Positions 39,479-48,845 are shown, counted from the stretch's first letter. The stretch: DNA of 64,000 nucleotides from Paludibacteraceae bacterium (GCA_024399535.1 JAKSNU010000001.1:5628-69627); one strand, 5' to 3'. Program-made: numbers and translations. Notes: generated from the sequence alone by a model not told the origin.

Positions 39479-39511
39479 AATCCGCACCACATTAAGTGAT
39501 GCGGATTTTTT
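39479..39511 (+). terminator. gcvT intrinsic terminator
   Basis: AATCCGCA / TGCGGATT stem followed by a T-run. Confidence 0.7.
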
Positions 39512-39546
39512 ATTTATTTATTTGTTTGTATATCATTTTTTTTTTG

Positions 39547-39554
39547 TAACTTTG
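39547..39554 (+). promoter_or_regulatory. -7 box TAACTTTG (extended GTAACTTTGCAGCG) for the partner-switching operon
   Basis: Motif 70 nt upstream of the ATG at 39624. Confidence 0.55.
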
Positions 39555-39623
39555 CAGCGCAATTTATAGGGTCGTTTGAAAAAACAAATTTGATAAAAAA
39601 AAAGCGAATAAAATAGTTAACAT

Positions 39624-41444
39624 ATGAATATTAGAGAAAAAATCAGAGAGTTAAAGTGGACAAATGGGAGAGATGCAAATGGGAAGAAGATGTATTCTAT
39701 GTGGCAGTTATGCTTATGGTTGCTGTTTTTAGTTGTTGCTACATACTCATTGAGTTTTGCAAGAAACTACTACATTGCTAAGCAACAGGCATTGTTAGAC
39801 GCTAAGACAAAAGCCGATTTGAATCTCCAAATAGCGAGTTGTATTATTGACAAACACTTGTCTCAAGTGGAAATCTCTTGTGACAACTTAGCTTCTACAT
39901 TCTTGGAAGCCAAAGATGTTATTGACGAGAATGGAAATAAATACAAAAAATTCATCTACCACAATCGTTTTGGAGCAACAGCGTCAAAAAGCGAGATATT
40001 TGATGGTTTGGAATTATTCACAAAAGCAAATCCGCACCTTTGGGGAGCTGCCATATCATTTGAGACTGATTTTTATCAAGACACTTGCCCTAACGGATTA
40101 TGTGTATTTGTTCGTCATTCCGCCAAAGATGTCTACGAGCACGTTGACATTTCGGCAATGGGCGACAACTTTAGGGAAAAAGAATGGTATGGTGGAACTA
40201 AAAAACTCGGAAGAGCTCAATGGACAAAACCATATTTAGACGTTATAGGTGAACTCATTGTCAGTTATTGCATTCCTATTTACGACGAAAATAACAAATT
40301 CATAGGCATAGTCGATGTCGATTATCAATTAAGCCGATTCAATGAGGAACTTACAAAAGAGGTCCATCCATACGAGAATAGCGAATTGATGTTGCTGACT
40401 TCTAACCAATTCATTGTCCATCCAAACAGAAACTATATAAAAGATAAGCAGACATCTATCGAAGATTTGAAAAGAGACTGCGAGGCTGACAACAAAAAAC
40501 TGTATTTTTCGAATATTGATTCGAACATGATGACAGTGGCATTAGTTTGTTCGAACGAAGATATTTTCAGAAACGTTGAGGAAATTACATCTAAAATCAA
40601 ATTATATGGCGCAATTGGTCTTCTCATCACGTTGATATTGCTATTTCTGACAATTGTTGAAATCAAAAAAGTCACCGAAAGCAGAGCAAACATAGAAAGC
40701 GAGTTGTGTGTTGCCTCCAATATCCAAATGGATATGTTGCCTAAGATGTTTCCTGCATTTCCTGATAGACAAGACATCAACGTCTATGCCACATTGAAAC
40801 CAGCCAAAAGTGTCGGAGGCGATTTGTATGATTTCCTTATCAAAAAGGATCCTCAGACTGGGAAAGAATCATTTTGTTTCATTATAGGCGACGTTTCTGG
40901 CAAAGGTGTACCTGCATCTCTTTTAATGGCAATGGTATGCAGTTTGTTCAGAGATATAGCGAGAAAAGAACTGAAAGCATCAAAAATAGTTTCTGACATC
41001 AACAATTGCATTAGCGATAGGAACGAGCATGATATGTTCTGCACATTGGCAGTCGGAATCATTGATTTAGAAACTGGACATTTGGAATATTGCAACGCAG
41101 GACATAACCAGCCAATAATAGCTAAGGATGGTGAAGTAGATTATGTTGATGTCACTCCTAATTTACCTGTAGGCGCATTCGGAGATTTTGAATATATTAG
41201 TGATGAAATGACAATAGGCGGAAATGACAAGTTATTCCTCTATACTGACGGATTGACTGAAGCCGAGAATATCAAAAAAGAAGAATATGGAGAACAGGCA
41301 CCATTAGAAATTATTAAAAATCATATGAACGACACTACAACAAACTTGGTCAACCACGTATTGTCAGAACTCTCTGCTTTTGTCGGGAAAGCAGAACAGA
41401 GTGATGATATAACATTAATGTGCATCCAATTTAATAAAAAATAA
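39624..41444 (+). CDS. Membrane sensor PP2C/SpoIIE-family serine phosphatase with a periplasmic Cache-like domain (RsbU-like)
   Basis: 606 aa. TM1 is LCLWLLFLVVATYSLSF. A ~270-aa extracytoplasmic domain carries WYGGTKKLGRAQWTKPYLD...IGIVDVDYQL (Cache-like). TM2 follows, then PP2C motifs GGDLYDF, IGDVSGKGVPASLLMA, LYTDGLTEA and DDITLM. Confidence 0.85.
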   Translation: MNIREKIRELKWTNGRDANGKKMYSMWQLCLWLLFLVVATYSLSFARNYYIAKQQALLDAKTKADLNLQIASCIIDKHLSQVEISCDNLASTFLEAKDVIDENGNKYKKFIYHNRFGATASKSEIFDGLELFTKANPHLWGAAISFETDFYQDTCPNGLCVFVRHSAKDVYEHVDISAMGDNFREKEWYGGTKKLGRAQWTKPYLDVIGELIVSYCIPIYDENNKFIGIVDVDYQLSRFNEELTKEVHPYENSELMLLTSNQFIVHPNRNYIKDKQTSIEDLKRDCEADNKKLYFSNIDSNMMTVALVCSNEDIFRNVEEITSKIKLYGAIGLLITLILLFLTIVEIKKVTESRANIESELCVASNIQMDMLPKMFPAFPDRQDINVYATLKPAKSVGGDLYDFLIKKDPQTGKESFCFIIGDVSGKGVPASLLMAMVCSLFRDIARKELKASKIVSDINNCISDRNEHDMFCTLAVGIIDLETGHLEYCNAGHNQPIIAKDGEVDYVDVTPNLPVGAFGDFEYISDEMTIGGNDKLFLYTDGLTEAENIKKEEYGEQAPLEIIKNHMNDTTTNLVNHVLSELSAFVGKAEQSDDITLMCIQFNKK

Positions 41445-41457
41445 ACGTTATATAAAA

Positions 41458-41760
41458 ATGGAAATAATTATCAAAGAAAATGCGAATAGCATAGAAGGGC
41501 ATTTTGTAGGAAGGTTGGACACTGTCGCAGCCACAAAAGTTGGATCTGAAATGGCTAAATTAGGTGAATATGCAGACAGAGAAATACTTTTGGATTTTGC
41601 TGAACTTGAATTTATCTCGTCAAGCGGTTTGCGACTATTGCTGATGCTGAACAAACAGTCAAAGGCAAAAAAAGGCAAAGTTATTATCGCTAATGCAAGC
41701 GATGATATTAAGCATGTCTTGAAATTAACTGGATTCATTTCCTTGTTTGAAATTAGATAA
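41458..41760 (+). CDS. STAS-domain anti-sigma-factor antagonist-like protein (RsbV/SpoIIAA-like)
   Basis: 100 aa. DFAELEFISSSGLRLL contains the conserved phosphorylatable Ser context. Confidence 0.85.
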   Translation: MEIIIKENANSIEGHFVGRLDTVAATKVGSEMAKLGEYADREILLDFAELEFISSSGLRLLLMLNKQSKAKKGKVIIANASDDIKHVLKLTGFISLFEIR

Positions 41761-41774
41761 AGGAGACCCTGGTT

Positions 41775-42188
41775 ATGTATAAACTACCGATAACCAACGA
41801 CATATCCGAAATGGAACATCTGGAAGAATTTGTAAACGAAATGGCAGAAGCGTTTAATTTAGCAGATGATTTCAAGTTCCAGTTAGGATTGGCTTTAGAC
41901 GAAGCCGTTGCAAACGTTGTTATGTATGCATACCCCGACAAGGAAGGTATGCCGATACATATTGAGGCAGATGGCGAACAAGGCAAAAAATTGATTATCA
42001 GAATAATAGACGAAGGCGTTGAATTCAATCCGTTAGCCGAGGCTCCAGAAGTAGATACAGATGCGACAACTGAAGACAGAGAAATAGGAGGATTAGGAAT
42101 TTTTTTGGTAAAAGAGAGTATGGATGACGTGCAATACGAAAGGAAAGATGGGAAAAACATACTTACAATGACTAAAAATCTATTATAA
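41775..42188 (+). CDS. RsbW/SpoIIAB-like serine protein kinase (HATPase_c_2)
   Basis: 137 aa with N-box LDEAVANVVMYA, IIDEGVEFNP and GGLGIFLVKE. Confidence 0.8.
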   Translation: MYKLPITNDISEMEHLEEFVNEMAEAFNLADDFKFQLGLALDEAVANVVMYAYPDKEGMPIHIEADGEQGKKLIIRIIDEGVEFNPLAEAPEVDTDATTEDREIGGLGIFLVKESMDDVQYERKDGKNILTMTKNLL

Positions 42189-43729
42189 TGCACTTTTGGG
42201 AAATAATAGCAATAGGTGAACTCACTTGGGGAGCATTATTTGTTTTTGTTGTGATTGCAGCAATGGCATTATTGTTGAACCTAACCAAAATGAAGACAGA
42301 ATCAGTGTTTCTGTTGGGTGTTGTTGTATTATTTCTTAGCGGTGTAATTAACGAAGAATCAGCGTTTGGTGGATTTTCTTCCGAGTCAGTGCTGATTACC
42401 GCTACCCTATTTATTGTAGTTGGCGGACTGACTTATACAGGTGTAATAAACTGGATAGTCAAGTATATGTTGGGCAAGCCAAAAACATTCAAAAAAGCAA
42501 TAGCGAGATTGATGTTCCCTGTGGCATTTCTCAGTTCGCTGATAGGCGATACCACTGTGGTGGCTATGTTTATAAATGTGGTTAGGATTTGGTCTAAAAA
42601 ATTAAATTTGACTCCATCCAAATTACTGATTCCATTGAGCTATGCGGCGTGCATGGGAGGTGCTTGTACGTTGATTGGTACACCCACCAATCTTCTTGTG
42701 GCGAGTTTTTACACAGAATCGACAGGCGAGACTTTAAGCATTTTCACCCCAACCATTTGTGGCTTAGTCTGCTTGGTAGTATGTGTGTTGTCAACTATTG
42801 CTTTGCGGAATCTGTTACCGACACGAAAATCGCCTATGGAGGGAATTGATACTGACGATTTTACTGCAGAACTCACAGTTCCTTCCGACTCGCTTATGAT
42901 TGGCAACGGATTGGACGAAACTGGCTATTTTGACAATGGCGATTTGAAAGTTGTCGCTATAAGGAGATTTGATGATGAGATTGTCACACCTGTTGAACCA
43001 GATGAATTCATTATGGGTGGCGACAGAATGATTGTAACAGGAAAAACTGATGCGATACTGAATTTTTGTAGAAAAGAGCATTTGGGCAACGAGCACATTG
43101 AGGGTATCCTATTGTCAGAAGGAGAGATTGAAAATAAAGGAAGAAGTACTATAATATCCTCATTGATAATATTTACAATGGTGATATTATCTGCTTTTTC
43201 CTTATTACCATTGATGCACTCGTGCATCTTGGCAGCCGTGGCTATGATATTTTTCAAATGCTGCACGCCAAAACAGGCGATGAAATCAATTGAATGGGAC
43301 GTTTTGATAATATTTGCCTGTTCGGTTTGTATAGGAAAGGCATTGACATCGACTGGTGTAACTAAACTTTTAGCTGAGAGTTTGATGTCGCTAAACGGAA
43401 ATAGCCCTTATTTTGCATTATTCGTGTTGTGTTTTGTTGCCACGGTAGTCACCGAATTTCTATCGGACACAGCGACAGCAGCTGTTCTGACACCAATTGC
43501 GTTGGACGTAGCTACTACAATGCACGTCAACCCACTGACTTTCTGTGTAGCCATAATGATAGCATCTTCGGCAAATTTTGCAACACCTATCAGTGCCCAT
43601 GCTCATATGCACGTGTTTGTTCCTGGAGGATATAAGTTTTCTGATTTCGTAAAAATAGGAATACCAATGAACATAATTATCTTGATAACAAATGTGGTTA
43701 TCTCATGTTTGGTATTCCCGTTAGTGTAA
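42188..43729 (+). CDS. SLC13/DASS-type permease with a central TrkA-C (RCK_C) domain
   Basis: 513 aa and polytopic. The central soluble segment ELTVPSDSLMIGNGLDE...VAIRRFDDEIVTPVEPDEFIMGGDRMIVTG is TrkA-C-like. The ATG shares its A with the kinase stop codon (TAATG). Confidence 0.7.
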   Translation: MHFWEIIAIGELTWGALFVFVVIAAMALLLNLTKMKTESVFLLGVVVLFLSGVINEESAFGGFSSESVLITATLFIVVGGLTYTGVINWIVKYMLGKPKTFKKAIARLMFPVAFLSSLIGDTTVVAMFINVVRIWSKKLNLTPSKLLIPLSYAACMGGACTLIGTPTNLLVASFYTESTGETLSIFTPTICGLVCLVVCVLSTIALRNLLPTRKSPMEGIDTDDFTAELTVPSDSLMIGNGLDETGYFDNGDLKVVAIRRFDDEIVTPVEPDEFIMGGDRMIVTGKTDAILNFCRKEHLGNEHIEGILLSEGEIENKGRSTIISSLIIFTMVILSAFSLLPLMHSCILAAVAMIFFKCCTPKQAMKSIEWDVLIIFACSVCIGKALTSTGVTKLLAESLMSLNGNSPYFALFVLCFVATVVTEFLSDTATAAVLTPIALDVATTMHVNPLTFCVAIMIASSANFATPISAHAHMHVFVPGGYKFSDFVKIGIPMNIIILITNVVISCLVFPLV

Positions 43730-43738
43730 AGATGACTT

Positions 43739-44464
43739 ATGCGGTATTTCGTTATTTTCGATTATGACGGCGGGCAATATTGCGGATGGCAGAAACAACC
43801 AAATGGCGAGACCATTCAATCCGTAATGGAAAAAGCGTTTGAAACAATACTGAGAGACGAAATCTCGTTGACTGGAGCAGGAAGGACAGATGCAGGCGTT
43901 CATGCTAAAAATATGGTAGCACATTTCGATTTCGATGGTGACTTTGACTGCGAACAATTGGCAAAAAGATTAAATAGCCTGCTGCCAAAAGATATAGCAA
44001 TAAGAGAAATAAAACATGTTGATAGCGAAGCTCATGCTCGGTTCGATGCTAAAAAGAGAAAATATGAATATCACATACTGAGAAAGAAAAATCCTTTTTA
44101 TAGAGACTATAGTTGTGCGATATATTATCCATTGGACATCGAAATAATGAATAAAGGAGCAGAAAAACTGATTGGAAGGAAAGACTTTCAGTCGTTTTCT
44201 AAAGTACATACCGATGTAAACAACTATTATTGTGAAATATACAAAGCTTTTTGGGAAGAACGGGACGACCAGATGATATTTACGATTGAAGCCAATAGGT
44301 TTTTGAGGGGAATGGTGAGAGCTATAGTCGGAACGCTTGTTGACCTCGGAGCTGGAAGGATAAATCTGGAGGACTTGGATAAAATCATCGACTCGCACGA
44401 CAGATGCAGTGCAGGTCAGGCGATGGATGCTAAAGGGTTATTTTTTGTAGGAGCAAAATATTAA
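43739..44464 (+). CDS. truA: tRNA pseudouridine(38-40) synthase
   Basis: 241 aa with YDGGQYCGWQKQ, GAGRTDAGVHA and FLRGMVRAIVGT. Confidence 0.9.
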   Translation: MRYFVIFDYDGGQYCGWQKQPNGETIQSVMEKAFETILRDEISLTGAGRTDAGVHAKNMVAHFDFDGDFDCEQLAKRLNSLLPKDIAIREIKHVDSEAHARFDAKKRKYEYHILRKKNPFYRDYSCAIYYPLDIEIMNKGAEKLIGRKDFQSFSKVHTDVNNYYCEIYKAFWEERDDQMIFTIEANRFLRGMVRAIVGTLVDLGAGRINLEDLDKIIDSHDRCSAGQAMDAKGLFFVGAKY

Positions 44465-48813: not shown

Positions 48814-48845
48814 TTTGGAGAATTGGAATAAATGACGTACCTTTG
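48814..48845 (+). promoter_or_regulatory. Promoter for xerD (-33 TTTG 48814-48817, -7 TACCTTTG 48838-48845)
   Basis: Canonical 20-nt spacing. Confidence 0.55.

Follow-up and report, generated by a model that had tools for sequence, protein, structure and literature searches.

The window analyzed here is a stretch of 64,000 nucleotides (nt) from a Paludibacteraceae bacterium (GCA_024399535.1, JAKSNU010000001.1:5628-69627), and between positions 39,547 and 43,729 it contains a putative promoter motif followed by four closely packed genes, encoding a membrane sensor phosphatase of the PP2C family, a single-domain STAS protein, an RsbW-like serine kinase, and a carrier with the DASS fold. We propose, at roughly even odds (a probability of about 0.5), that the four genes form a portable cassette in which a phospho-STAS switch acts locally on the co-encoded carrier, and not on a sigma factor. 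Across Bacteroidales, the linkage between the three switch genes (hereafter the module) and the carrier is conserved through repeated rearrangement. It is not obligatory, because many carriers of the same clade stand alone and a carrier is found in only 6 of 80 loci collected around the phosphatase.

Components of the cassette and the search for a sigma factor

The window comes from contig C1 of a 1.63-Mb metagenome-assembled genome (MAG) that is 80% complete. A first-pass annotation of the DNA had described a Cache-sensor membrane phosphatase of the RsbU/SpoIIE type, a STAS antagonist with the conserved serine context, and an RsbW-like serine kinase, and all three assignments are borne out by domain matches and conserved motifs (Table 1). 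The phosphatase is predicted to have a first transmembrane segment (residues ~27-45), an extracytoplasmic dCache_1/PDC domain (~94-277), and a second transmembrane segment (~325-347) ahead of the PP2C/SpoIIE domain, with the MCP-like_PDC_1/dCache_1 match lying between the two hydrophobic segments. The STAS protein scores above the cut-off of TIGR00377 (57.2 against 53.45 bits) and contains the sequence EFISSSGLRLL, in which Ser55 aligns with the phosphorylated serine of SpoIIAA (1th8). The kinase has the N box, G1 (DEG), and G2 (GGLG) in an alignment to RsbW (6m36), and it scores under the cut-offs of the RsbW equivalog models. The genome has one PP2C gene, one STAS gene, and one clear RsbW-like gene, all located here; a second, weak HATPase_c_2 match (27.5 bits, C46:7917-8279) lies inside a 609 amino acid (aa) open frame. 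By sequence, the phosphatase sensor (window positions 39801-40583) is closest to the amino-acid/taurine-binding dCache domains of Vibrio chemoreceptors (6iop, 3c8c, and 5ave; E ~1e-5). Its RxRPWY motif reads REKEWY, with the second Arg replaced by Lys, and the PY-D and D positions are retained.

The fourth gene had been described as an SLC13/DASS-type permease with a TrkA-C domain. Its product passes the Pfam cut-offs for CitMHS (229 bits) and Na_sulph_symp (55.5 bits) and shows homology to VcINDY/SLC13 (DASS) proteins (E 2e-24). An AlphaFold2 model (pLDDT 80, pTM 0.77) has the VcINDY/SLC13 elevator fold with a beta-rich insert that corresponds to TrkA_C, and Foldseek matched this model to VcINDY, NaCT, and NaS1 with TM-scores of 0.62-0.75 (E 1e-13 to 1e-11). 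The single TrkA_C domain lies between the two repeats of the carrier and, by analogy with the topology of VcINDY, would be cytoplasmic. The fold and the domain of the earlier description therefore stand; what does not fit is that the protein falls below the cut-off of the NCBIfam 'dass' model TIGR00785 (123.5 against 198.6 bits) and has lost the Asn of both substrate-binding motifs, as described below.

Partner switching is taught as a form of sigma-factor control, and the known exceptions have a diguanylate cyclase, FlgM, secretion, or a glycosyltransferase as their target. In agreement with the first-pass annotation, which saw no sigma gene in the 64-kb window, Sigma70_r2 had no match on contig C1, and the module-bearing genomes searched (this one, a congener, G215, and a member of another genus, G272) yielded no SigB/SigF-like (group-3, ~250 aa) sigma factor; sigma-54 was not searched in either case. 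The genome has two Sigma70_r2 matches only, on contigs C5 and C9, and its sigma frames are a 317-aa RpoD-like and a 185-aa ECF-sized (extracytoplasmic function) frame, at a genome completeness of 80%. G215, which is 99% complete, and G272 each have a single RpoD-like frame, and their ECF-sized frames measure 163-216 aa. Among the families that characterize partner switching, the phosphatase, the STAS protein, and the kinase were found here, and the sigma-factor partner was not.

A promoter had been placed at 39547-39554, upstream of four packed genes, and a Bacteroidetes-type motif is present there, 70 nt 5' of the phosphatase start codon; we used the TTTG/TAnnTTTG motif because a sigma-70-type promoter scanner is uninformative in Bacteroidetes. 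The pattern TTTG-N17-21-TAnnTTTG has 8 matches in the 64-kb window against 1.9 expected, a number reached by no shuffle, and the site is a candidate promoter. All 8 strict matches precede gene or operon starts, such as those of cas9, tnaA, and the capsule locus. No strict match occurs between 39554 and the next one, at 48814. Upstream, a gcvT terminator hairpin, overlooked by a scanner with a loop limit of 8 nt, is predicted to separate the cassette transcriptionally from the preceding operon. The phosphatase-STAS and STAS-kinase gaps measure 13 and 14 nt, and the carrier ATG shares its A with the kinase stop codon, as first described, an overlap that suggests translational coupling. The end of the cassette at 43729 does not, on the other hand, appear to be the end of the transcript: truA starts 9 nt past the carrier, and scans of the window found neither a promoter motif nor a terminator in the gap, so that truA is probably co-transcribed with the cassette and the transcription unit probably runs past 43729. 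Rfam and PADLOC gave no match.

Linkage between the module and the carrier across Bacteroidales

The first-pass annotation had proposed a gene-neighborhood survey and had allowed that the linkage of triad and transporter might be limited to this genome. We surveyed kinase neighborhoods in 201 genomes sampled across the order and in 151 genomes of the family, searched species-representative genomes for the carrier (89 loci), collected 80 loci (L152-L231) around the phosphatase, and built a tree of 95 carrier proteins. Most of the compared loci are MAG or metagenome contigs in which genes were called by open reading frame (ORF) length, the module-family hidden Markov models (HMMs) were home-made from 36-38 seed sequences each and run on the ORFs of the carrier-centered loci, and related genomes among the surveyed sets are non-independent.

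Every linked carrier belongs to a single Bacteroidales clade with 34 members (SH-aLRT 100), and the linked ones are scattered through the whole of it. Thirteen of the 34 are adjacent to a module gene, 2 are near one, 14 are alone, and 5 lie at contig ends; outside the clade, linkage was seen in none of 61 carriers (Pseudomonadota, Cyanobacteriota, and others). The linkage thus recurs across Bacteroidales and is not peculiar to this genome, with the same cassette in relatives and other gene orders elsewhere.

The order gcvT-PP2C(x1-2)-STAS-kinase-carrier-truA is found in the congener G215 (L027), in a Paludibacteraceae MAG (L055, 89%), and in the metagenome contigs L147-L151. G215 is the only congener with both genes, and there they are adjacent and in the same order, with 62-68% identity and a duplicated phosphatase. 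Over the locus, a close relative, a Paludibacteraceae MAG from horse faeces, is 87-97% identical, and together with the flanking genes it puts the window among gut/rumen Bacteroidales. Three metagenome lineages, with carriers 62-63% identical, have exactly this cassette. In three congeners without the module (G244, G269, and G326), gcvT directly adjoins truA, which implies that the four genes were gained or lost as a block. Tandem dCache-PP2C duplicates (614-616 aa each) precede a single STAS-kinase-carrier set at L027:9303-13167 and L149:1112-4809; the duplicated phosphatases may represent two sensors feeding one switch.

Taken together, the linked carriers occur in at least eight gene orders (Table 1). 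The carrier often stands with the phosphatase-kinase gene on one side and the STAS gene on the other, and STAS directly adjoins the carrier in 7 of about 10 arrangement types. In another genus (G272 and G294; L028), the order is kinase-PP2C-carrier-STAS with 4-nt overlaps at two junctions, and the carrier is a 586-aa paralogue with two TrkA_C domains. A locus in a Fibrobacteraceae-labelled MAG (L048:8001-12251) has, beside kinase, PP2C, and STAS genes, a carrier that shares 62% identity with the one in a Bacteroidales genus; this represents either an inter-phylum transfer or a binning error.

At the family level, the kinase and a carrier homologue were each found in 18 of 151 genomes. The kinase was present in 5 of 6 genomes with a clade-type carrier compared with 12 of 144 others, a difference that is indicative only, given the non-independence of related genomes. 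Order-wide, 77 of 201 genomes had a kinase homologue, and the best 20 of these loci were all phosphatase/kinase/STAS sets, often with PP2C and kinase fused in a ~800-aa open frame. Among isolates, a related module was found only in Parabacteroides gordonii DSM 23371 and Prevotella sp. P6B1, and the carrier is adjacent in neither. In a control list, Bacteroides thetaiotaomicron lacks a SpoIIE-type PP2C. None of the 120 best carrier homologues is fused to STAS or HATPase_c_2.

These counts bear on whether the transporter and the triad could lie side by side by chance. The many clade carriers and many modules that occur apart are the one observation that would agree with this, and we consider it highly improbable, since 13 of the 29 clade carriers with adequate flanks adjoin a module, in many orders and several families, and the same cassette is retained at 62% protein identity. 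As far as such data allow, the linkage survey sets chance juxtaposition aside.

The module itself is not restricted to one neighbor. In the phosphatase tree, a single clade of 28 (support 100/99) takes in the carrier-linked phosphatases, apart from the long-branched one of L048, and mixes them with members whose neighborhoods lack a carrier. In sister modules, the place of the carrier is taken by RelA_SpoT-like proteins, often with a cytidylate-kinase-like protein, by ABC-transporter genes, or by LuxE/LuxC-like enzymes (Table 1). The ABC cargo includes an NMT1-type binding protein, a 353-375-aa ATPase, and a permease, and in L071 it lies between two STAS genes. Among the 80 PP2C-centered loci, about 27 have a gene for an NMT1-like binding protein immediately 5' of the phosphatase, about 17 a RelA_SpoT-like gene in the vicinity, and about 12 a gene for an ABC ATPase. 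Because the same position holds different cargo across sister modules, the modules look, from their gene content, like portable phospho-STAS switches whose local cargo can be exchanged, and those with RelA_SpoT suggest a partner switch on an alarmone synthetase in rumen Bacteroidales. In many relatives (e.g., L062-L069), dCache-PP2C and the RsbW-like kinase form one ~790-aa protein with a separate STAS protein, and with kinase and membrane phosphatase joined in this way, STAS is the sole freely diffusing part. A search for a docking-type sequence feature common to the carrier, the RelA_SpoT-like protein, the ABC ATPase, and LuxE gave nothing below E 0.5. In another Bacteroidales family, the Na/Pi cotransporter of L020 is a further solute carrier beside a sigma-less switch.

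The linkage could also reflect co-expression only, with the switch targeting a distant factor (an RpoD-like sigma, an ECF sigma, or another regulator) and the carrier riding in a possibly autoregulated operon. This would resemble Chlamydia, in which a membrane RsbU with a periplasmic sensor has a proposed distal target, sigma-66 (PMC11619594), and it would agree with the presence of the same module clade in some genomes without a clade-type carrier (e.g., G044) and with STAS proteins that are not clustered by cargo. We regard it as unlikely, however, as the linkage persists through at least eight rearrangements, the carrier often lies between regulator genes with junctions that overlap or measure 1-4 nt, the cassette is gained or lost as a unit, and a group-3 sigma factor was not found in the module-bearing genomes searched.

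Table 1. Features of the window (positions in nt from its first letter) and gene orders or cargo at compared loci (L numbers)
Feature or gene order	Position or locus	Strand	Basis or remark
gcvT terminator hairpin: 7-bp stem, 13-nt loop, T run after	39480..39515	+	read from sequence
Putative Bacteroidetes-type promoter: TTTG (-33) at 39525-39528, 18-nt spacer, TAACTTTG (-7) at 39547-39554	39525..39554	+	motif match
Membrane sensor phosphatase, dCache-PP2C, 606 aa	39624..41444	+	SpoIIE domain PF07228, 170 bits, residues 415-603
Single-domain STAS protein (RsbV/SpoIIAA-like), 100 aa	41458..41760	+	STAS 49.9 bits; TIGR00377 57.2 bits
Candidate phospho-site, STAS Ser55 codon	41620-41622	+	alignment to SpoIIAA 1th8
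RsbW/SpoIIAB-type GHKL serine kinase, 137 aa	41775..42188	+	HATPase_c_2 (PF13581), 90 bits
TAATG, kinase stop/carrier start overlap (one shared base)	42186..42190	+	sequence
DASS-fold (VcINDY-like) carrier with TrkA_C/RCK_C insert, 513 aa	42188..43729	+	CitMHS 229 bits
Carrier hairpin-tip motif GDT in place of SNT, residues 120-122	42545-42553	+	motif comparison
TrkA_C domain of carrier, residues 227-295	42866-43072		
Carrier hairpin-tip motif SDT in place of SNT, residues 426-428	43463-43471	+	aligns with VcINDY SNT
truA, outside cassette, downstream edge of indel	43739..44464	+	domain/profile match
PP2C-kinase-STAS-carrier	L054		
[PP2C-kinase fusion]-carrier-STAS	L062, L063, L064, L093, L161		L161 from PP2C-centered search
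[PP2C-kinase]-STAS-carrier	L066, L069		
Kinase-STAS-carrier plus divergent PP2C-STAS pair	L076		
Carrier-STAS-[PP2C-kinase]	L218		from PP2C-centered search
PP2C-carrier	L052		
Kinase and carrier convergent	L048		Fibrobacteraceae-labelled MAG
Divergent STAS adjoining carrier	L071		Alistipes MAG
RelA_SpoT-like protein (360-372 aa), often with cytidylate-kinase-like protein, in carrier's place	L009:5585-6667, L036:5168-6950, L046:5183-6940		
ABC-transporter genes between [PP2C-kinase] and STAS	L071:4333-7650; L008:5537-6664; L162, L170, L183, L192, L206, L225		
LuxE/LuxC-like enzymes as cargo	L018		
Na/Pi cotransporter after STAS in PP2C-kinase-STAS operon, beside STAND NTPase-WD40 protein	L020:5003-6652		other Bacteroidales family

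Divergence of the carrier and the proposed mechanism

In DASS carriers, two hairpin-tip Ser-Asn-Thr (SNT) motifs bind substrate carboxylates and contribute to two Na+ sites (PMC7553777). The window carrier has GDT and SDT at these positions. Among the 120 best homologues in a large protein collection, the Asn is absent from both motifs in only 8, which constitute the subclade of the window (P0001-P0008) and carry G[DEQ]T and [SE][DGS]T; the other 112 keep Asn in both. Every placeable member of this subclade sits in the cassette. A second tightly linked lineage has degenerate motifs, listed as ISE/GNP (L028), MVD/GGP (L048), and NNL/SNN (L076), and both divergent lineages stand on long stems in the carrier tree. 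SNT-like motifs are retained in all 18 unlinked or contig-edge members of the clade and in the Prevotellaceae-type linked carriers, and seven linked carriers keep the canonical SNT/SNT. Judged by these motifs, divergence of the binding site appears confined to linked lineages, and the window carrier is not a canonical dicarboxylate symporter. Because acidic residues stand at both SNT Asn positions, its substrate is probably other than a Na+-coupled di- or tricarboxylate. Retention of an acidic residue at each hairpin tip suggests a role in sensing or a change of substrate or coupling ion to a cation, a zwitterion, or H+, and not simple decay. These substitutions mark a DASS subfamily with a substrate that is not guessable from the family name, which matters for the annotation of gut metagenomes. 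Apart from the motifs, residues that separate linked from unlinked carriers amount to one weak position, Asn301, with none in the TrkA_C core.

Such divergence raises the possibility that the carrier is an input, that is, a transceptor or co-sensor that reports substrate or flux to the phosphatase or kinase, with the true output elsewhere. DctA and DcuB for DcuS, and SAC1 in Chlamydomonas, are precedents of this type. Loss of both Asn in the window lineage, the degenerate motifs of L028, L048, and L076, the retention of Asn in both motifs by the 18 unlinked or edge members and by 112 of 120 homologues, and the long stems are all compatible with such a role, as is L052, where PP2C alone lies beside the carrier. 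Even so, we consider an input role unlikely. The phosphatase already owns an extracytoplasmic dCache input, no alternative output candidate is conserved in the cassette, and the seven linked carriers with SNT/SNT show no such divergence. Furthermore, sister modules place enzymes (RelA_SpoT-like), which are natural outputs, at the same position, and the Asn-to-Asp/Glu change is symmetrical and lineage-conserved, so that it looks like retuning and not like decay.

In the reading that we prefer, local control of the carrier by the switch, a ligand at the extracytoplasmic dCache domain would set the activity of the PP2C phosphatase, and phosphatase and RsbW-like kinase together would determine the phosphorylation state of STAS Ser55. 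Two contacts could follow. In the first, dephosphorylated STAS would bind the TrkA_C domain of the carrier, as MlaB binds MlaF; the position of STAS next to the carrier in most arrangement types fits this option. In the second, the kinase would hold the TrkA_C domain until dephosphorylated STAS draws it off, as in classical partner switching with the carrier replacing the sigma factor, and this option fits the gene order of phosphatase, STAS, kinase, and overlapping target, which mirrors rsbU-rsbV-rsbW-sigB. Either event would alter the activity of the carrier. The protein contacts, the direction and sign of control, and the substrate are in each case what we infer. A more specific version, which we put forward as a tentative possibility, has the TrkA_C/RCK_C domain taking the sigma factor's place and held by the kinase or by dephosphorylated STAS, with its release governed by the phosphorylation state of STAS, so that a dCache signal would gate the carrier within seconds and free of transcription; given the double acidic swap, the carrier may then move or sense a cation or a zwitterion.

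Several observations weigh against local control of the carrier. The carrier was found within 7 kb in none of the 20 best order-level kinase loci, and it is a minority neighbor in the PP2C-centered loci. The 14 clade carriers that stand alone show no consistent TrkA_C difference from the linked ones. Direct reading of the cargo by STAS would predict grouping by cargo type in the STAS tree, and no such grouping is seen. The restriction of motif divergence to tightly linked lineages fits a sensor carrier at least as well as a regulated transporter. Finally, the support comes from sequence, linkage, and a structure model, and the loci are mostly MAG contigs with ORF-length gene calls and home-made HMMs.

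If local control is correct, fast phosphorylation-dependent control of solute transport would join the outputs of partner switching, as the first known case for a secondary transporter, and a concrete role would fall to the TrkA_C domains, so far unexplained, of YfbS/SLT-like SLC13 proteins. The cassette brings into view an as yet unstudied layer of regulation in Bacteroidales of the rumen and gut, where the same module clade carries RelA_SpoT-like and ABC cargo.

Comparison with known systems

Our literature searches turned up no paper connecting a partner switch with an SLC13/CitMHS/TrkA_C carrier and no study of partner switching in Bacteroides or relatives. The first-pass annotation had known of no characterized non-transcriptional output of this kind, and this holds for the system itself; non-sigma outputs (HsbA, SypA, and All4160) and a free STAS subunit of a transporter (MlaB) are already known, and it is the output class that is new.

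The RsbU-RsbV-RsbW-SigB and SpoIIE-SpoIIAA-SpoIIAB-SigF systems of B. subtilis share with the window the same three families in the same order, with the phosphorylated serine and the kinase boxes conserved. The window differs in that its phosphatase sits in the membrane and bears a dCache sensor and its fourth gene encodes a membrane carrier in place of a sigma factor, a group-3 sigma factor not having been found in the genome.

HsbR of Pseudomonas and SypE of Vibrio fischeri combine kinase and phosphatase on one chain, a layout shared by the fused relatives of the window module, and take their input through a receiver domain. Their STAS partners, HsbA and SypA, pass the output to non-sigma targets (PMC8256260, PMC10120452), and All4160, in the HenR/All4160 pair, is another non-sigma partner-switch output (2026 preprint). 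In the window, by contrast, the kinase has its own gene, a dCache domain supplies the input, and the presumed target is a secondary carrier.

The RsbU/RsbV1,2/RsbW system of Chlamydia trachomatis likewise places its RsbU in the membrane, with a periplasmic sensor for a metabolite, and the organism has no SigB/F-type sigma factor (PMC11619594). In its working model the target is sigma-66, and the locus includes no transporter, whereas the window has a carrier in the cassette and a dCache domain that resembles amino-acid-type chemoreceptor domains.

With regard to transporters, the elevator fold is common to VcINDY/SLC13 and the window carrier, which differs in having TrkA_C between its repeats and GDT/SDT in place of SNT. 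SLC26/SulP transporters have a fused STAS domain; the window carrier has the DASS fold, and no STAS domain occurs in its 120 best homologues. The nearest parallel for a free STAS protein is E. coli MlaFEDB, where MlaB is encoded with the transporter, as in the window cassette, and binds the ABC ATPase MlaF; a phosphomimetic at Thr52, the equivalent of Ser55, weakens binding, and control by phosphorylation has been proposed (PMC7367683). The window STAS scores 21.8 bits against the mlaB_1 model, under its 90-bit cut-off. Unlike MlaB, which has no known kinase or phosphatase, it is co-encoded with both, together with a DASS-fold TrkA_C carrier lacking an ATPase.

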